From: Myxococcota bacterium
GTDB taxonomy: Bacteria > Myxococcota > XYA12-FULL-58-9 > JABJBS01
DNA: 38,733 bases
Reading direction: 5' to 3'
Assembly: GCA_036339465.1 (NCBI GenBank)
Contig: JAYZAY010000027.1
Span: forward strand, 1 to 38,733
Both the position numbers and the translations under genes were made by a program. The notes beneath the pieces were generated by a model, which saw nothing but the letters and a program-made list of their open reading frames with translations, ran no database searches and was not told the origin of the DNA. How positions within the stretch are numbered: the first letter of the stretch is position 1; every line of letters begins with the position of its first letter. This document shows positions 26,757 through 33,514 of this stretch, one piece after another.

Positions 26757-27536
26757 ATGAAGATTTGTGTTGTGGGTGGTTTGGGGCGGATGGGCTCGCT
26801 TGTTCGGGAGGTTACCAGAACTTCGGAACGGTTTGAGCAACGATTTGAAGTTGCAAGTATTCTAGATAGGACTGATGGGAACATTTCCGAGCCAGGGTTA
26901 AATGGGATCAAAATTACCGATGACGTTATTGATGCATTTGCAGATATTCATGGTGTGGTCGATTTTTCTGCGCCGGCGGCTTGTTGTAGGACCCTTCCTA
27001 TCGCTGTAGACCGGGGTATTCCTTATCTACTTGCATCCACGGGTTTAGCTCCAGAACACTACGGTACGATTGATATGGCCGCCAAAGCCATTCCCCTCTT
27101 GGTAGCTGCCAACTGTAGCTTGGGTGTTAATCTACTTTATGGGTTGGTGGCAAAGGCCGCTGCTGCTTTGCCGGATTTTGATATGGAAATATTTGAGATC
27201 CATCATCGTCACAAACGAGACGCACCTAGTGGTACGGCAAAATATCTAGGAGAAGCAGTTGTTGAAGGCCGTAAAGAACAAGGGGTCGCCCATACTTGGG
27301 GGAGGGTGGGTTTGAGTGAAGGTCGCCAAAAAGAAGAAGTTGGTTATGCTGCTTTACGGGGTGGCTCCGTTCCTGGTGACCATACAGTCTATTTATTTGG
27401 TGAAGATGAACGCTTGGAGCTCACCCACCAAGCACAAAGTCCCAGAATTTTTGCTGAAGGCGCCTTAAGTGCGTTGGGGTGGTTGGCGGACAAAGAGGCG
27501 GACTTATATGGTATGCGTGACCTCTTCTCCTTCTGA
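26757..27536 (+). CDS. dapB: 4-hydroxy-tetrahydrodipicolinate reductase
   Basis: GGLGRMG, DFS, EIHHRHKRDAPSGTA, LRGGSVPGDH. RBS GGAGG at 26743-26747. Confidence 0.96.
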   Translation: MKICVVGGLGRMGSLVREVTRTSERFEQRFEVASILDRTDGNISEPGLNGIKITDDVIDAFADIHGVVDFSAPAACCRTLPIAVDRGIPYLLASTGLAPEHYGTIDMAAKAIPLLVAANCSLGVNLLYGLVAKAAAALPDFDMEIFEIHHRHKRDAPSGTAKYLGEAVVEGRKEQGVAHTWGRVGLSEGRQKEEVGYAALRGGSVPGDHTVYLFGEDERLELTHQAQSPRIFAEGALSALGWLADKEADLYGMRDLFSF

Positions 27537-28092
27537 GCGACTCCATAAGCCGGTACATGCGTATATTGCAGCCGGCGGGAATTTGGGGCCTGTTCTAGAG
27601 CTTCTTGATTGGGTTAGGATTCAATTGGAGAACCGAACGAGGTCCTTGGTTAAGTGCTCTAGGGCTTACCGAACCCGTGCGCATGTTCTCCCTGGAGTGA
27701 GTGGTCCCGTGCCGGATTACTGGAATTGTGTTTTTGAGCTCGAAACGAGCCTACGTCCCCTTGTTTTATTGAAGTCCCTTTTGAAATTGGAGACTGAACA
27801 AGGACGTGTCCGTCTACATCGATGGGAACCTCGTGCGCTTGATTTGGATTTAGTGCTGTATGGGCAATGGACTGTGTGTCATCGGGATTTAGTTGTTCCT
27901 CATCCACGAATGTACGAGCGAAGGTTTGTCTTGGAACCGTTGCATGAACTCAATCCAAGGCTAACGATTCCCGGAGCACCCGGGACACTGAACTCACGTC
28001 TGGAACAATTAAGATTGACAGCCCCTGATGACATTCTGAATGTACGGGATTTTCAGTACCGACGTAAGGGGATGATTCTGAATACAGGTTAA
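27508..28092 (+). CDS. folK: 2-amino-4-hydroxy-6-hydroxymethyldihydropteridine diphosphokinase
   Basis: AYIAAGGNLG, RWEPRALDLDLVLY, VPHPRMYERRFVLEPL. Start is uncertain (27508 or 27517). Confidence 0.93.
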   Translation: MVCVTSSPSERLHKPVHAYIAAGGNLGPVLELLDWVRIQLENRTRSLVKCSRAYRTRAHVLPGVSGPVPDYWNCVFELETSLRPLVLLKSLLKLETEQGRVRLHRWEPRALDLDLVLYGQWTVCHRDLVVPHPRMYERRFVLEPLHELNPRLTIPGAPGTLNSRLEQLRLTAPDDILNVRDFQYRRKGMILNTG

Positions 28093-28164
28093 TCTTAAAG
28101 ATTACCAGAAGAGTACGAAAGAGCTATTCGCTGTTGGCGTAGCAAGTCCTTCTGAATCGGAGGC

Positions 28165-28557
28165 CTATGCTTCGATTGAGTTCTGTTTTCTTCGCGTAAC
28201 GAAGGGGATGAGCCCGAGTAGAAACCAAGGTAATATTGGAGCTTGTTGGCAACCACTCTCTTCGTCTGTTTCGGCTTGTCCCCTTGGCTGGTAGAAGTCG
28301 ATGTGGGTATCAGAGTCCAAAGCCCAGCCACTTTCACTGAACCACATCGATACGAGAAGATATAGCTCATTTTCGATGGACGTGAGACCTTCGGCAGGAA
28401 TGGAGAGTCCTCGGTTGCTTTCCACTTGTGAGTTGCGTTTTGATTTTTGACCTACGGTCCTCGCATCGGTAATGATACCTCCTCCAGCTAGGGCGGGGGC
28501 GGTAAAAGACAGGCCAAAGCATGTACAGAACAAGAGGATAATGGATTTCCTCAACAT
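28165..28557 (-). CDS. Small exported protein with MYXO-CTERM-like C-terminal sorting signal
   Basis: Signal peptide (..APALA) and C-terminus ESGCQQAP-ILPWFLLGLIPFV-TRRK (GC, hydrophobic helix, basic cluster). Confidence 0.7.
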   Translation of the reverse strand: MLRKSIILLFCTCFGLSFTAPALAGGGIITDARTVGQKSKRNSQVESNRGLSIPAEGLTSIENELYLLVSMWFSESGWALDSDTHIDFYQPRGQAETDEESGCQQAPILPWFLLGLIPFVTRRKQNSIEA

Positions 28558-29324
28558 GATTCACTCACTTCATCCACCACGCTGATTTTGGGCGACTCAC
28601 AACGCCAGTGGATAGCTACTGTTAGATGATACGGGATCGTGTCTGAAGTCTCTTCTGATTCGAGAAGTGCAAGCGCCCTTTCAAGCGTATCGAGACTCAG
28701 ACGATATCGATTAGAGTCGGCCAGACAATCGAATTGTGACATAATTGCCATGTCTTTTTCGTCACCGCTCACTTTTTGGAGAGAAGCTTCTTTTACCAAT
28801 TCTAGAATAGAATCGTTTTCGCTCAGGTTCTCTTTTTTATCCCGTGAAGTTCCTACTATTAAAACGGACTGGTGGTAAAGCCTAGTTTGAGCTGCAACAT
28901 TCGTAATTTTTAGAAGTTCTTCAAAGAGGCTCTGGAATTGGTTTGGCCGTAAGGCTCGAATGGTTGTGGGGCTTAACCGAAAGGTCTTGATCCATACCCT
29001 GGAAAGGCCGTGGCTTTCAGCCCCATGAAGGGAAGATAGCCCCGCGTTCAGAGATGGAAGAATGTACCGCTGGAGAAAGGTCATCATCCCCTCTTGTCGG
29101 ACCTGTTGATATGTCTCCGCAACCGCGAAGATTTTTCCGTCTTTCCCCTCTTGAATGAGGCCATTCCGAACGAGCCTCCCGAGCATATCGATGGAGCCCA
29201 GCCTTCCTAGGAGCTCTTGCTTGGACATGGGTGTTTCAAGGAGTGCTAAGATGAGCTCCATATTGTCCTGTAAAAGGTCGTATGCAAATTCTGACTCAAT
29301 GTTGAGTCTCTCAGCTGGCATCAT
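28551..29324 (-). CDS. Hypothetical protein with predicted N-terminal winged helix-turn-helix
   Basis: LILALLETPMSKQELLGRLG...LGRLVRNGLIQEGKDGKIFAV resembles ArsR-like wHTH domains. Overlaps both neighbours. Confidence 0.6.
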   Translation of the reverse strand: MMPAERLNIESEFAYDLLQDNMELILALLETPMSKQELLGRLGSIDMLGRLVRNGLIQEGKDGKIFAVAETYQQVRQEGMMTFLQRYILPSLNAGLSSLHGAESHGLSRVWIKTFRLSPTTIRALRPNQFQSLFEELLKITNVAAQTRLYHQSVLIVGTSRDKKENLSENDSILELVKEASLQKVSGDEKDMAIMSQFDCLADSNRYRLSLDTLERALALLESEETSDTIPYHLTVAIHWRCESPKISVVDEVSESC

Positions 29325-30535
29325 TTCCGTGCCTCGGGGAAAACTTCATAGTAAAGTTGGTGAGCAACGCTTTTTGGAGGCATCCTTGCAGAAGTTGTGC
29401 CAAAGTATTTACGGAAATCGGCCTGGGTTTCTGCACCCGAAACCAACCAGAGGGCAACTTTTGAAAGTCGGTGCATTCGTTCGCTGACCCGGCGATACGT
29501 TTTTTCGTCGGGACCGAGGTCGTCGAAAATACCCTGAACCGACTGTGTAAGCTTATTAAGGGTGTTTATGGAAATATCGTGATGTTTGGCCAATTCTATG
29601 AGTTTCGTTTTTGCGACGAGAAGATTGAATTCGCTCTCTAGCTCATCGACTTCCATCGCTTCTCGAGCGGACTTGGCAAATTGAAACTCGCGGTGGATGA
29701 ATGGGTGAACCATATGACTATCGAGTGCTTCCGGTAGGTCGTCGATGGCGCTGGCGAAAACCATGTCTCTGACGACTTCACGGAGTTTTCGAATACTAAC
29801 TTCGCTAGATCTAATAATGGCTGTTTCAATATCAGCCCTTGCTTGTCGAGTGAATCCGTAGAAATTTTTGGCCCCGAGATCTTCGGCGACTTCCCTGGCG
29901 AAGGCTTGCGATAATTCTGATATATCGTTACGACGCTCAAATAATGGGGGTAGTTGAATTTTTGCCGCAGCTCTATCGACGATATCCCTGCGGAACTCCC
30001 CTAGCTCTACCATTTCACGTAGATCGCGGTTTGTGGACAGAATGATCAATGCATCGCTTTGCTTTACTGTGTGATCGCCTACCGACCGATACTCTCGCTC
30101 TCCGAGAAAGCGTAAAAGTCTTGCCTGGTCTTGAGCCACCAAGGATTGGATTTCATCGAGCACCAGCGTGCCACCCTTTGCCTTGGCGACCAAACCGCCA
30201 TAGTCGCGATCTGCTCCGGTAAATGCACCTCTTTTATAACCAAAGAGTTGGCTTTCGAAAATGCCGTTTCCTAAATTGGCACAGTTCACCTCGACGAGCT
30301 CTCCGCCTCGTCCTAAGGCCTTTTTAGCTGCACGGTGACATGCGGACGCAATGACTTCCTTACCCGTCCCTGTATGCCCCGATAAAAGGACGACGTCTTT
30401 TGTCTTACGGAAGATAATCTTTGACGGAATTTCGCGCTTCAGATGCTCTTTTATATCCGAGCCGATGATACCTAGATCCGTGCAAACATCACCCACATGC
30501 GTGGATGCTTTATATGTGATAGTCCCCGAGTCCAT
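29321..30535 (-). CDS. Sigma54-dependent enhancer-binding protein (AAA+), no N-terminal regulatory domain
   Basis: Walker A GHTGTGKE at ~aa 53, VNCA, ESQLFGYKRGAFTGA, Walker B LVLDEI, STNRDL, FRRD. Confidence 0.93.
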   Translation of the reverse strand: MDSGTITYKASTHVGDVCTDLGIIGSDIKEHLKREIPSKIIFRKTKDVVLLSGHTGTGKEVIASACHRAAKKALGRGGELVEVNCANLGNGIFESQLFGYKRGAFTGADRDYGGLVAKAKGGTLVLDEIQSLVAQDQARLLRFLGEREYRSVGDHTVKQSDALIILSTNRDLREMVELGEFRRDIVDRAAAKIQLPPLFERRNDISELSQAFAREVAEDLGAKNFYGFTRQARADIETAIIRSSEVSIRKLREVVRDMVFASAIDDLPEALDSHMVHPFIHREFQFAKSAREAMEVDELESEFNLLVAKTKLIELAKHHDISINTLNKLTQSVQGIFDDLGPDEKTYRRVSERMHRLSKVALWLVSGAETQADFRKYFGTTSARMPPKSVAHQLYYEVFPEARK

Positions 30536-30571
30536 GAGAGGGATTTCGTCACACCTTGGCCTATAGAGTCA

Positions 30572-30620
30572 AGTTCGTAATCACGAACTCTTATAAAAAA
30601 AAGGTTCGGAATCATGAACG
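30572..30620. promoter_or_regulatory. Tandem palindromic sites (putative upstream activator sequences)
   Basis: AGTTCGTAATCACGAACT (30572-30589) and GGTTCGGAATCATGAACG (30603-30620), 31-bp period, shared core GTTCG-N-AATCA-N-GAAC. Confidence 0.65.
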
Positions 30621-30728
30621 AGTTGGATGTTGAGCAAAAAACGTCCGAATTTGGTAACATTGTGCCCAACCTCCTAACTTTTCTTGGCTTCTCTTATTTT
30701 TTTCCACCCATGTAGTTCAAAAAGGATT

Positions 30729-30745
30729 TTGGCACGGAACCTGCT
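30729..30745 (+). promoter_or_regulatory. Sigma54 (-24/-12) promoter
   Basis: TTGGCACGGAACCTGCT compared with consensus YTGGCACG-N4-TTGCW. GG at 30731-30732 and GC at 30743-30744 are 10 nt apart. Confidence 0.85.
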
Positions 30746-30755
30746 TAGTCATAAT

Positions 30756-30986
30756 ATTGTGAGCGCTGGAAATAAACTCGCTAGCTCCCCCCGGGCAAAA
30801 GCGAAAGCTTAGAACCATCGTTCATTTACGCCAAGCTTGTTTGAGCGGCGCTTTTATGAAGGTTCCAATGGGCACTGTCACAATACTGCGGCAGGGAGCT
30901 GGAATAAGAGAAGTCTACAATCGTCTGTTATTCATCGTGAGTTTCAGACAAGCGTGTACCTACGCTGTAGATGTCGCTCAAACAAT
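30756..30986 (+). ncRNA. Candidate sigma54-transcribed multi-branched structured RNA (sRNA or long 5' leader), unassigned
   Basis: The closing stem starts at the predicted TSS and encloses nested helices including a GAAA tetraloop. No RBS-supported ORF. Confidence 0.6.
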
Positions 30987-31168
30987 GTTGGCCTAATACT
31001 TATCTGGTGGTCAAAGTCTAGCCTATTCCCAATATTTTTTAAGTCAGGAAGCGAAAATCAAAAAGAACATAGGGAATTATTAAGTTGAAAATCGGTGAAA
31101 GCAGAGTTACATATACCTGGGTATCGTACTGTTAGTTTTCTGCCAATCTAATCAATGGAGCTCAAAGG

Positions 31169-31486
31169 GTGTCAAAAGTTGTACATTTGTCCAATGATGC
31201 GCATGCGCAGGCGAAAGTTTTTTGCAAGGCGCGAGGATTGAAGATGAGTGATTGGGTTGGGTGCCTGATTCTTGAGGCGATTTCTTCGCAAACTCAAGAA
31301 GCAGTAGAGCCGGAGCCTGTTCCTGTTCTGGAGGTACCCGAGGCTCCCAGGAAGAAGAAACTTCCGGAGATGGACGATACGGTACAGTCGACTGATGATG
31401 GAACACCAGTCTACGCACAACCCCCATTTTGGGCAAAGCCAAAGTCCGAACCAGAAGAAAAAGAGATCGATGTATCAACCCTCTAG
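31169..31486 (+). CDS. Small protein with predicted ribbon-helix-helix N-terminus
   Basis: GTG start with GGAG at 31157-31160. SKVVHLS-NDAHAQAKVFCKARG-LKMSDWVGCLILEAI matches the beta-helix-G-x-x-S-helix RHH pattern, followed by a Pro/Glu-rich tail. Confidence 0.65.
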   Translation: MSKVVHLSNDAHAQAKVFCKARGLKMSDWVGCLILEAISSQTQEAVEPEPVPVLEVPEAPRKKKLPEMDDTVQSTDDGTPVYAQPPFWAKPKSEPEEKEIDVSTL

Positions 31487-31627
31487 GGGCCTCGATTTTT
31501 CTTGACTCTTAGCGAAGCATCAAGCATTAGCTAGCCGCCGCTTTAATAAGCGGCGTGTGGATTGTTTAAGACCCTCATGATTGAGTCTTTGGTTTTTAAG
31601 GATCTTGATAATCCCATCGCGAAAATT

Positions 31628-31716
31628 GCCGCCTTGGTGGAATTGGTAGACACAACGGACTTAAAATCCGTCGGGCTTAAACTCCCGTCCCGGTTCGACT
31701 CCGGGAGGCGGCACCA
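31628..31716 (+). tRNA. tRNA-Leu (anticodon TAA)
   Basis: Acceptor GCCGCCT/AGGCGGC, D-loop GGAATTGGTAGAC, anticodon arm ACGGA-CTTAAAA-TCCGT, long variable arm, GGTTCGACTCC and encoded CCA. Confidence 0.98.
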
Positions 31717-31747
31717 TGAATCTTTCCCTTTCGATATTTCACGGTTC

Positions 31748-33514
31748 TTAAGACTTGAGCATTTGTACCGCCCAGTTGGCGATGGTTTTGTCTTTTGAAT
31801 CAAGTGCTTCACGCGCTAATTCGGTGAGGCCTATATGGCTTGGTTTTTTTTCGAGTGCTTTTTTTGCGGCCTCGAGGCTTTGCTGTAGTTTGGGTAGGTC
31901 AGCGGTTTGTCGATGAATCTTGGCTTGAAGTAGAAAGTCGTTCCAATCGAAGGTAGGGTTTTCATCTCCCAGAGTATTTAAAGCATTGCTAAATTCTCGT
32001 ACCTCCATCTCTTGTATTGCGAGAGCCCGTCTGAGAGGTCGGTAAAATGGGTTTGCTCTAATCCCGTTTTTACGTAGTTGACGGGCTTCACTTAAGTTGT
32101 TTTTGGTTTCGTATAAATTTGAGAGTTTTTCAAAACTAAGGGGGAAAGCAGGAAATAGTCTCATCAGATGATGGAGAGCGGCGTCAAGATGACACGCATT
32201 GCGGGAATCCAAATGCGTGACATAGTCCCAGTGACCTCGAATGGATTGGGGATACCGTTCCAAGAAACTCTGGAAGTCATTATTTTGGAGTGTCTCGGGG
32301 GCGGCAAATTTTATTTCCACAAGATAGTCGCACCAGTAGTGATGGCCCGCTCCTTCCCTAATCAGTTGTAGAGCGGCTGGGGGAATGTTTTGTGGGGATT
32401 GGCTCAATCCCATGATGACCGATTTTTCGAGGTTTCCATAGGGCAGGGAGACAAACTCATTGGAGGTGGATTGGTTTGTTGGCGGTGGACTACCTCGTAA
32501 TTGACAGTATTGGTTTGCCCGTTGTTCAACGTTAAGGTTTTCGATTCTATGTTTCGCCACGTAGCTCCGACAGTTGGTTTGAATTTCGCGTCGTAAATTC
32601 GGATTCTCAATGAGTCGCTTAATTTGCTGGCTCAGTTCCGTGGGTGAACCATAGACAAATCCGGTTTTACCATTTTCTACCGCCATTTGATAGGGTGCAA
32701 GATCACTGACAATGGGTACGACTCCGTGGCCTGCATATTCAAGAAATTTAATGTCTGACCGGCATCGATTGAATTCCGTGTCCAAGAGGGGAGCAATACC
32801 GATATGGAGGGTGCTTAAGAAATCGTAATATTTTTCGAGTGAATTTTGCGGGGTGTATTTCCAGCGACCCTCGGGAAGCTCGCTCTTTAATATCGCTTTA
32901 AATGCCTCTGCTCCCATCAGTGAAAAGGTAAGCTCGGGTATTTCCAGCAATAGGTCCCGAATACAGGGTAGTATTGACAGTAAATCGTCTCGATGTCCCC
33001 ATGAACCTCCCCAACCAATGTTGATGCAAGATGAGTTGGTTGGACTTTGGGTTTTGGGTAGTTCTAAGAGATGATTGGGGAACACCACCTGATTGGGGTT
33101 AAGGTACCCGTATAGCTCTTGCAAATGGGGCATTGAGAATTGAAGCAGATTACTTTTGTGTGCCGCCCACTGGATGAGAGACTGATTTAACTCATTTTGG
33201 TAAAATGTGGTGGTTGGGTTCCAGTGCTGAACGTTGGTGAAGCTGTCGTTGATTTCGTAAATAAAAGGAAGATGATGGGTGATGCGATGTTGCAGGGCGG
33301 GAAGCATGTCGATGTCGATGGTATCGCAGAGCAGCAGCAGTTGGGAATTTCTTAAGGATTCAAGGGCGTGTGGATGTACCAGGGACTCATTGCTGATGCT
33401 GAATCCTCCCACCTTGGCCAGGGCTTTTCCCGGCTGACGAGTTCTGTAGATATGATCCCCTTGCTGGCTTACATGGGGGGGCTCCATCCAGAGCATTTGC
33501 GGCGCTTTTATCAT
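31748..33514 (-). CDS. GT-B (GT4-like) glycosyltransferase with C-terminal TPR-like region
   Basis: YEIND, IGWGGSWGH, IGIAPLLDTEFNRCRSDIKFLEYA, PIVSDLAPY, GKTGF, followed by helical repeats. Confidence 0.8.
   Translation of the reverse strand: MIKAPQMLWMEPPHVSQQGDHIYRTRQPGKALAKVGGFSISNESLVHPHALESLRNSQLLLLCDTIDIDMLPALQHRITHHLPFIYEINDSFTNVQHWNPTTTFYQNELNQSLIQWAAHKSNLLQFSMPHLQELYGYLNPNQVVFPNHLLELPKTQSPTNSSCINIGWGGSWGHRDDLLSILPCIRDLLLEIPELTFSLMGAEAFKAILKSELPEGRWKYTPQNSLEKYYDFLSTLHIGIAPLLDTEFNRCRSDIKFLEYAGHGVVPIVSDLAPYQMAVENGKTGFVYGSPTELSQQIKRLIENPNLRREIQTNCRSYVAKHRIENLNVEQRANQYCQLRGSPPPTNQSTSNEFVSLPYGNLEKSVIMGLSQSPQNIPPAALQLIREGAGHHYWCDYLVEIKFAAPETLQNNDFQSFLERYPQSIRGHWDYVTHLDSRNACHLDAALHHLMRLFPAFPLSFEKLSNLYETKNNLSEARQLRKNGIRANPFYRPLRRALAIQEMEVREFSNALNTLGDENPTFDWNDFLLQAKIHRQTADLPKLQQSLEAAKKALEKKPSHIGLTELAREALDSKDKTIANWAVQMLKS

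Follow-up and report, generated by a model that had tools for sequence, protein, structure and literature searches.

How is a sigma-54 activator controlled when it carries no sensor domain of its own, and which genes does it serve? This question is raised by a locus at positions 28165–31486 of contig JAYZAY010000027.1 from a Myxococcota bacterium (assembly GCA_036339465.1), the host belonging to an uncultured marine order of this phylum; the whole stretch of 38 733 nucleotides was analysed and is referred to as the window. Three minus-strand genes, headed by that of a bacterial enhancer-binding protein (bEBP) of 404 amino acids (aa), stand here back to back with a plus-strand gene for a ribbon–helix–helix (RHH)-like protein of 105 aa, with a pair of palindromes, a −24/−12-like promoter and a long structured leader in between. 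Judged by comparison of sequences, we consider this arrangement a real, conserved and lineage-restricted sensor-less sigma-54 cassette in which the partner proteins and the leader RNA motif are both new. Our best explanation of the whole, to which we assign a probability of roughly 0.55, is that a PspF-like activator drives both the 105-aa gene and a zincin operon located elsewhere in the genome, regulates its own expression and is gated by a 257-aa protein encoded directly downstream of it.

The locus was compared across 41 relatives (the genome of the window, G000, included), comprising 22 genomes of its order and 19 from outside the order, and across a phylum-wide sample of 401 genomes that includes a second Myxococcota family (f26, seven genomes) and f17 (172 genomes); metagenome contigs were also read. 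The features on which the argument turns are the following, with the evidence for each in brackets.

28165–28557, minus strand: 130-aa exported protein with a MYXO-CTERM-type tail (open reading frame, ORF; alignment of nine orthologues)
28551–29324, minus strand: 257-aa partner protein, predicted to comprise a winged helix of ArsR type followed by a long helix and then an alpha/beta domain (ORF; structure model)
29321–30535, minus strand: sigma-54 activator (bEBP), 404 aa (ORF; Pfam Sigma54_activat)
30573–30588, no strand assigned: palindrome 1, GTTCGTAATCACGAAC, an exact GTTCG-N6-CGAAC, 38–53 bp from the activator start codon
30604–30619, no strand assigned: palindrome 2, GTTCGGAATCATGAAC, with one mismatch, 31 bp from palindrome 1, start to start
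30730–30745, plus strand: putative −24/−12 promoter, TGGCACGGAACCTGCT, with one mismatch to the consensus (pattern and alignment)
30756–31168, plus strand: leader of the 105-aa gene, about 413 nt, from the predicted transcript start to the GTG
30861–30900, plus strand: RNA motif composed of P1, the bulge AAUGGGCA, the P2 hairpin and the 3′ arm of P1 (covariation)
31169–31486, plus strand: 105-aa RHH-like protein, GTG start (ORF; alignment of 29 homologues)

The 257-aa ORF overlaps that of the activator by 4 nt and that of the 130-aa protein by 7 nt. An earlier note, made from the letters of this DNA alone, had described three overlapping minus-strand genes for a sensor-less AAA+ activator with GAFTGA, a winged-helix-like protein and a small MYXO-CTERM-like surface protein, two tandem palindromes followed by a near-consensus −24/−12 promoter on the plus strand, and some 410 nt of structured DNA without a credible ORF. 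This anatomy is borne out, the winged helix by a structure model and the MYXO-CTERM assignment by a tail seen in most orthologues together with weak profile matches. The note had also failed to recognize the combination as an already described system, and here too we agree: no Pfam, NCBIfam or Rfam family covers it, and a literature search gave no description of it.

The 404-aa protein matches Pfam Sigma54_activat (PF00158) over residues 44–188 (E 2e-44; 151.7 bits, cut-off 20.2), and its nearest solved structure is the AAA+ domain of PspF (E 6e-44). The AAA+ domain begins at about residue 44 in all 11 orthologues, preceded by about 43 residues and no N-terminal sensor domain, and 10 of the 11 aligned sequences carry GAFTGA or GAYTGA together with G-x-T-G-x-G-K-E and L-D-E, the exception being genome G012 (see below). 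By these features the protein is a sensor-less, PspF-like bEBP and, since it has no sensor domain, should be constitutively competent. Its best-conserved part in the alignment of 11 orthologues is the C-terminal stretch of about 60 residues, a domain seen only in 10 orthologous activators. The genome of the window also encodes RpoN (Sigma54_DBD, E 1.3e-65, contig C11).

Full-length orthologues of the activator (54–68% identity) occur in 10 of the 41 relatives and a divergent copy in an eleventh, G012. The 257-aa protein was detected in exactly these 11 genomes, always directly downstream of the activator, and it was not found in any of five checked genomes whose 105-aa locus has no activator. 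A 130-aa-type protein follows the 257-aa gene in 9/9 loci of the order with enough DNA. Co-occurrence with the activator thus holds for the two partner proteins (11/11 and 9/9) and fails for the 105-aa gene, which is often found without the cassette. The cassette as such is present in 11 of the 22 genomes of the order and in 7/7 of family f26; in the phylum-wide sample the 257-aa family was detected in 19 of 401 genomes (11 of the order, 7/7 of f26 and 1/172 of f17). Within f26 the activator (45–47% identity) adjoins the 257-aa gene in 5/5 loci fetched, and a small MYXO-CTERM protein follows in three of these five.

The eleventh genome provides a natural control. The activator homologue of G012 (33% identity; loci L011/L029) has lost the GAFTGA stretch, and its Walker B D-E is replaced by D-H. 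The conserved C-terminal domain is retained, as is the 257-aa gene beside it; the third, small protein of this cassette is without the membrane tail. The intergenic region (219 bp) is without palindromes, promoter block and RNA motif, so that the loss of GAFTGA and of the Walker B glutamate goes with the loss of the palindromes and the block. The same 219 bp hold a 9-bp inverted repeat (TGCCAATGA ... TCATTGGCA).

Neither partner protein belongs to a well-marked family. The model of the 257-aa protein (predicted local distance difference test, pLDDT, 77) has an N-terminal domain whose best structural match is the ArsR repressor 6j05_B (Z 8.1; root mean square deviation, rmsd, 2.6 over 72 residues). 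In Pfam and NCBIfam neither this sequence nor that of the 130-aa protein found a family at E up to 0.1, chance-level rows apart. The 257-aa protein also gave no match to HTH_5 or HTH_20, its whole model gave nothing in the PDB at E ≤ 0.001 with Foldseek, its C-terminal alpha/beta domain being without a fold match, and the ESM Atlas returned only leads under 0.9. The idea that it is a detached CARF domain, i.e. half of a split RtcR, found no support in structure comparison. Members of the 130-aa family begin with a signal peptide, followed by a mature N-terminus that is conserved (type GG-V/I-I-T-D-G-R) and by an L-Y-L-x-x-S-M motif, and 8/9 orthologues end in Gly-Gly-Cys, a hydrophobic/transmembrane stretch and a run of Arg. 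Profile matches to this tail are weak: TIGR03901 (MYXO-CTERM) matched three of the nine orthologues (best E 0.011) and TIGR03382 likewise three (best E 0.014), and the window's own copy matched NF045523 only (E 0.07), without a match to either of the other two. Homologues outside genome G001 were missed by tblastn and were found by reading the ORFs 3′ of each 257-aa gene.

The intergenic region carries the candidate sites at which such an activator would work. With a transcript predicted to start near 30756, the palindrome centres lie near −175 and −144, and across the orthologous regions they are predicted to lie between −93 and −175. When 10 regions from intact cassettes were aligned, a near-invariant GTCAAGTTCGAAATCACGAACC block was followed about 30 bp on by a second GTTCG-N6-CGAAC, and a TTGGC-N8-TG block kept a constant place, facing the 105-aa gene, in all 10; both palindromes and −24/−12-like block are therefore conserved features of the region. 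The palindrome pair was present at the cassette region in 9/10 intact-cassette genomes, while elsewhere its pattern occurred in 1/12 other genomes of the order and 3/19 outside it (reversed-pattern control, 1/41). Metagenome contigs yielded 10 intact-type activator genes divergent to a 105-aa gene, nine with the palindrome pair and one with a single copy. In f26 a palindrome of the same type lies 75–119 bp upstream of the activator gene in three of five loci, as a single copy and with no divergent target. From these patterns we infer that the palindromes are putative binding sites of the activator and that transcription from the −24/−12 block depends on sigma-54.

The same combination of sites recurs at a second type of locus. 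On contig C58 of the window's genome (locus L058, 3300–4600, outside the window), GTTCGAGACTACGAAC and GTTCTAATTCACGAAC stand upstream of the promoter-like TGGCATATTAATTGCT, ahead of an operon for a 320-aa secreted protein and then a Met-zincin lipoprotein (>1103 aa); the orthologous operon of G005 has two palindromes and TGGCACGGATTGCGCA. In two f26 genomes, G064 and G191, the DNA immediately upstream of the cassette holds palindromes and canonical promoters (TGGCACGTGCGCTGCA; TGGCATCGGCGCTGCA) in front of an operon encoding a secreted protein (339/359 aa) and a 1480-aa zincin homologous to that of C58 (E 4e-14). At all four loci the palindromes are placed about 50–230 bp upstream of canonical GG-N10-GC promoters. 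The activator therefore appears not to be dedicated to the locus in the window, C58 being a second putative target. Exact palindromes number 19–20 in each of G064 and G191, compared with 1–2 for the reversed control, which suggests a larger activator regulon in these genomes than in that of the window. The zincin family has 2–7 matches per genome in 18 of the 22 genomes of the order. Three smaller observations belong here. One palindrome of G191 is combined with TGGCACGCGCACTGCA immediately 3′ of the cassette; at the G017 zincin locus a palindrome pair is followed by masked bases; and one other exact palindrome of the window's genome was disregarded because it falls within a coding ORF.

Downstream of the −24/−12 block, the leader of the 105-aa gene folds with a minimum free energy of −117.9 kcal/mol (z −2.26; 1 of 100 shuffles as good), a moderate signal for the leader as a whole. 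It encodes no conserved peptide, since three-frame translations of eight leaders gave a best shared match of E 0.12, and a hidden small ORF was rejected on this basis, that match overlying the RNA motif. The motif itself is much better defined. In the window P1 is GGUUCC/GGAGCU and P2 is CUGUC/GGCAG, and the bulge on the 5′ side has the consensus (A/U/G)(A/U/G)UGGGCA, with UGGGCA invariant. P2 reaches 96% pairing when 14 sequences are compared in an unfitted alignment, and 6/7 of its pairs show compensatory changes; P1 is wholly different in sequence between lineages yet always pairs (mean 6.8 bp vs 3.4 in shuffles, the largest mean among 2000 shuffles being 4.7). Metagenome contigs added 12 full and two partial matches, with new covarying arms in L090, L092, L095, L096 and L098, and in their model-fitted alignment 86% of cells pair and 12/13 pairs show compensatory changes. 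This covariation, one of the checks that the earlier note had called for, demonstrates among the aligned sequences a real RNA structure in the leader, whose G–U pairs restrict it to the strand on which the 105-aa gene lies.

The distribution of this motif follows the 105-aa gene. The covariance model finds a single copy in the window's genome and matches strongly in 14 of the 41 relatives, these 14 being the seed genomes, i.e. the 10 with an intact cassette and 4/4 f3 genomes without one. In every case the motif shared its strand with the 105-aa gene and lay 250–450 nt upstream of it; the motif was found only beside that gene and is absent from the f26 cassette loci. Since it occurs without the cassette in f3 and is missing from the cassettes of f26, it belongs to the 105-aa mRNA and not to the activator, and it is probably an older cis element of that mRNA which acts post-transcriptionally and independently of the activator. 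An Rfam scan of 27500–32500 at E up to 1 returned tRNA only (the presence of a Pxr model in Rfam 15 was not checked).

The 105-aa gene was detected in 22/22 genomes of the order and 0/19 outside it, usually right after dapB–folK and before tRNA-Leu(UAA). In 9 of 18 genome loci dapB is the next gene upstream on the same strand, with no cassette between (folK detectable in seven), and 24 metagenome loci show the same arrangement in six (folK in five; only dapB in L105) and a divergent activator in 11, a further seven being too short for the neighbour to be judged. As the gene is so often at its place without the cassette, the cassette is best described as an accessory insertion at a fixed place. 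The encoded protein has a highly conserved N-terminus (about 38 residues) within an RHH-like region of about 45 residues, then a disordered linker and a tail with conserved P-R-K-K and P-P-F-W motifs. The top Foldseek matches of its model are all RHH proteins (probabilities up to 0.97), at non-significant E values of 0.5–3, and the monomer model has the two helices and no strand. Sequence searches gave no Pfam family, nothing usable in NCBIfam and no usable ESM Atlas match.

These results can be combined into one mechanism. Attached by its C-terminal domain to both GTTCG-N6-CGAAC palindromes of the intergenic region, the activator would open the promoter at 30730–30745, giving a transcript that runs from about 30756 through the leader of about 413 nt into the 105-aa gene; it would also drive the zincin operon of C58. 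Autoregulation of the cassette through palindrome 1, as with PspF, is probable because this palindrome abuts a TTGAC ahead of the activator gene. The co-translated 257-aa winged-helix protein would probably restrain the activator in trans, and the exported MYXO-CTERM protein may supply an envelope-side input. Set against this scheme, the functional proposals of the earlier note fare less well than its anatomy. The circuit is not self-contained: the order-wide 105-aa gene (22/22 genomes) stands without the cassette in half of its genomes, the RNA motif also occurs where the cassette is missing, and the activator has other putative targets. An RNA output on the precedent of Pxr fits poorly with what looks like a 5′ leader without a terminator-like site, whose motif travels with the 105-aa gene. 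Gating of the activator by the co-encoded proteins stays a proposal, for which the strict pairing of the 257-aa gene and a weak complex score speak.

Several observations weigh against an activator that serves the 105-aa gene from a sigma-54 promoter. The GC of the −12 element is kept only in G000, G001 and L019, the eight other regions reading TTGA, TTGG, TTGT or CTGG, and the promoter bases of the window can also be read as a sigma-70-like TTGGCA-N17-TAATAT (9/12 matches). Within the window alone, motif counts are at chance level, both for the sigma-54 pattern (1 vs 0.28 expected; at least 1 in 26/100 shuffles) and for the palindrome (2 vs 1.17 expected; at least 2 in 33/100 shuffles), so that the argument has to come from where the motifs lie and from their conservation among orthologous regions; nor is the palindrome enriched genome-wide in G000 (three exact copies vs eight for the reversed control). 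Among 30 zincin paralogue loci, a scan found a palindrome–promoter pair only at C58 and, when read by eye, at its G005 orthologue, the flank of about 1.5 kb being possibly too short. The C-terminal domain of the activator has no HTH_8 match and no significant helix-turn-helix match, the nearest being HTH_60 at E 0.084 over residues 309–373. Finally, both the 105-aa gene and its RNA motif are also found where the cassette is missing, so that the adjacency of gene and cassette could be historical. On that account the real targets would be the zincin operons, the palindromes of the locus would serve autoregulation only, the −24/−12 block would be idle in most genomes and the 105-aa gene would have a sigma-70-type promoter. 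The order-wide occurrence of the gene, the absence of the −12 GC from 8/11 orthologous regions, the sigma-70-like reading, the single palindrome upstream of the f26 activators without a divergent target and a conserved box nearer the 105-aa start in several families would all be expected; we nonetheless hold this explanation to be unlikely, since the block keeps its place, orientation and GG/TG spacing in 10/10 intact-cassette regions, the site here is a pair, like those of the zincin promoters and unlike the single, presumably autoregulatory sites of f26, and in G012 the loss of GAFTGA is accompanied by loss of palindromes and block. Non-GC −12 elements moreover work in Salmonella, whose sigma-54 sites as given in PMC3844500 include TTGT (pspA) and TTGA (STM0649.S), and because of these the divergent forms in the orthologues are compatible with sigma-54. 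We regard as quite improbable a free-standing, Pxr-like small RNA that ends before the 105-aa gene and leaves that gene to a promoter of its own. The promoter does lie far from the start codon, the covarying motif lies about 105–145 nt past the predicted start, an RNA-library contig in the leader spans 30770–30919 only, and Pxr beside a bEBP gene of Myxococcus, as described in PMC5684412, is a precedent. Such short contigs cannot define RNA ends, however, and there is no terminator-like site on the plus strand at 30760–31168, no Rfam match at the threshold given above, and the motif is a single-copy companion of the 105-aa gene (same strand, fixed range of distances) that occurs without the activator and is lacking in the f26 cassette loci.

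The weakest step of the activator-driven mechanism is gating by the 257-aa protein. Prediction of the complex with the activator gave a median score of 0.55 (best of three controls 0.00), which lies in a band more often wrong than right unless the pairing is likely beforehand; agreement between runs extended to at least 58% of contacts, with a partner pLDDT of at least 71. In the calibration the mark was reached by 116/157 solved complexes and 2/215 mismatched pairs, and scores of 0.60 or less comprised only 18 of the passing solved complexes but both passing mismatches. The model thus passes, with a weak score in an error-prone band, and the 257-aa protein probably holds the activator in check in trans. 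A live alternative, possible but in our view somewhat unlikely, is that it acts as an ArsR-like DNA-binding co-regulator or repressor at the promoter block of the cassette, the 130-aa protein being a co-expressed surface product. An ArsR-like winged helix followed by a long helix suited to dimerization is what such a role would call for, a conserved and otherwise unexplained block at 30540–30554 beside the activator start could be its site, and G012 retains the 257-aa gene beside a homologue unable to contact sigma-54. The strict pairing and the 4-nt translational overlap, on the other hand, fit a stoichiometric partner, the complex prediction passed, if weakly, where all controls scored 0.00, and the sensor-less activators so far studied are under protein partners, as described in PMC3791423 (PspA–PspF) and PMC3105312 (HrpV–HrpS). 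Gating by a protein partner accordingly stays our preferred proposal for this step.

The known system most like the cassette is PspF–PspA of Escherichia coli, with which it shares the absence of an N-terminal regulatory domain, the closest AAA+ structure, a divergent target, sites beside the activator's own promoter and control expected from a separate protein. It differs in that the partner bears no PspA/IM30 signature and is encoded in the activator operon instead of the target operon, the C-terminal domain is not HTH_8, the score against the PspF equivalog TIGR02974 (178.3 bits) is below the cut-off of 443.55, and the putative targets are an RHH-like gene and zincin operons. HrpR/HrpS–HrpV of Pseudomonas syringae, as described in PMC3105312 and PMC4145663, likewise involves sensor-less bEBPs checked by an unrelated small protein; the cassette has a single activator instead of a co-dependent pair, a partner without similarity to HrpV and other outputs. 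Pxr/nla19 of Myxococcus xanthus (PMC5684412) is a structured RNA beside a sigma-54 activator gene in the same phylum, but the RNA found here is part of a protein gene's leader, occurs also without the activator and has two helices and a UGGGCA bulge as opposed to three stem-loops. RtcR is the best NCBIfam match of the AAA+ part (NF038308, 185.5 bits, profile positions 202–449 only), far below the cut-off of 650, and the activator has 43 residues before the AAA+ domain and no CARF domain. The N-terminal 45 or so residues of the 105-aa protein superpose on RHH proteins of the CopG/Arc/MetJ type (MatP-RHH, Arc, CopG, MazE and ParG; target-normalized template-modelling score 0.6–0.8, rmsd 1.3–3.4), from which it is set apart by the E values of 0.5–3, the lack of a Pfam family and the long tail with P-R-K-K and P-P-F-W. 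The 130-aa protein resembles the MYXO-CTERM/GC_trans_RRR proteins in its tail and its weak TIGR03901/TIGR03382 matches, and differs in being very small, in having N-terminal and central motifs of its own and in always following activator and partner. The system works like Psp/Hrp control yet is a member of neither, because it fails the PspF cut-off, has no PspA or HrpV homologue and carries a different putative DNA-binding domain, and it is not Pxr-like.

To our knowledge, sensor-less sigma-54 activators are known from few systems only (Psp and Hrp). In both of these the trans-acting partner defined a new signalling route. The cassette is a candidate third solution, found in two Myxococcota lineages, with a partner that belongs to no known family and a small surface-sorted protein that travels with it. 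Its GTTCG-N6-CGAAC palindrome offers a way to trace the regulon through uncultured genomes, the regulon so far putatively including large secreted zincins, and the leader motif, which is compact, covaries well, has an invariant bulge and is absent from Rfam, is a ready RNA candidate for probing and for ligand and protein-partner searches. As a highly speculative extension, the cassette might be a new trans-envelope signalling device that follows the logic of PspF with new parts: the MYXO-CTERM protein would report surface sorting or extracellular proteolysis and free the activator from the 257-aa anti-activator, and the activator would then switch on the zincin operon and, through a leader with a new class of regulatory RNA, the order-wide RHH regulator, with possible read-through into tRNA-Leu(UAA) as an extra effect.

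The start of the activator gene has features of its own, summarized by one further entry.

30540–30572, minus strand: conserved block 5′ of the activator start, with TTGAC (minus strand) abutting palindrome 1 (10-genome intergenic alignment)

No Shine–Dalgarno sequence is visible in 30536–30572, ahead of the activator ATG at 30535; in the window's genome the conserved block has an AAT 7 nt from this ATG and the TTGAC another 18 nt upstream, which suggests that the activator mRNA has a very short leader or is leaderless. Other genomes (e.g. G013) have GGAG and a longer leader at this place. The block possibly serves the cassette itself as promoter or operator.

A few details of the 105-aa gene deserve mention. 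Its ESM Atlas entry starts at residue 26, read as M, and the conserved M-S-K-V-V-H-L strand is cut off; public gene calls are likely to miscall the start within 31169–31246. In the otherwise variable acidic tail (31400–31440, residues ~58–90), P-R-K-K-x-L and P-V-Y-A-Q-P-P-F-W are invariant or nearly so and look like short docking motifs for a partner. A conserved box, GATCTGTCGGACCC(C/T)(T/C)GATCAA, lies about 75–110 nt upstream of the 105-aa start in L023–L027, L030, L032 and L034, with GATC-rich repeats ahead of it. Families that have the cassette and families that lack it both carry this box, which is not recognizable in the family of G000 itself; it may act as a proximal promoter or as an operator bound by the RHH-like protein.

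Two marine RNA libraries hold contigs that match the locus exactly across 28183–28410 (within the 130-aa gene), 30770–30919 (within the leader) and 31212–31378 (within the 105-aa gene); DNA carry-over is possible, and such contigs give neither RNA ends or start nor strand. In two other runs, X3 and X4, no piece of the window was matched, and tRNA pieces in runs X1 and X2 were rejected as tRNAs of other organisms by their mismatches and unlike flanks.

The last feature of the locus follows the 105-aa gene, in the order given by the earlier note.

31628–31716, plus strand: tRNA-Leu(UAA) (tRNA prediction; Rfam)

This tRNA gene was found at most about 270 nt downstream of the 105-aa gene in five of nine other loci scanned (G001, G002, G019 and two views of G012), and the adjacency is seen in several families (loci L013, L018, L006 and L011). 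In the window's genome a GC hairpin (31535–31556) lies between the 105-aa gene and the tRNA.

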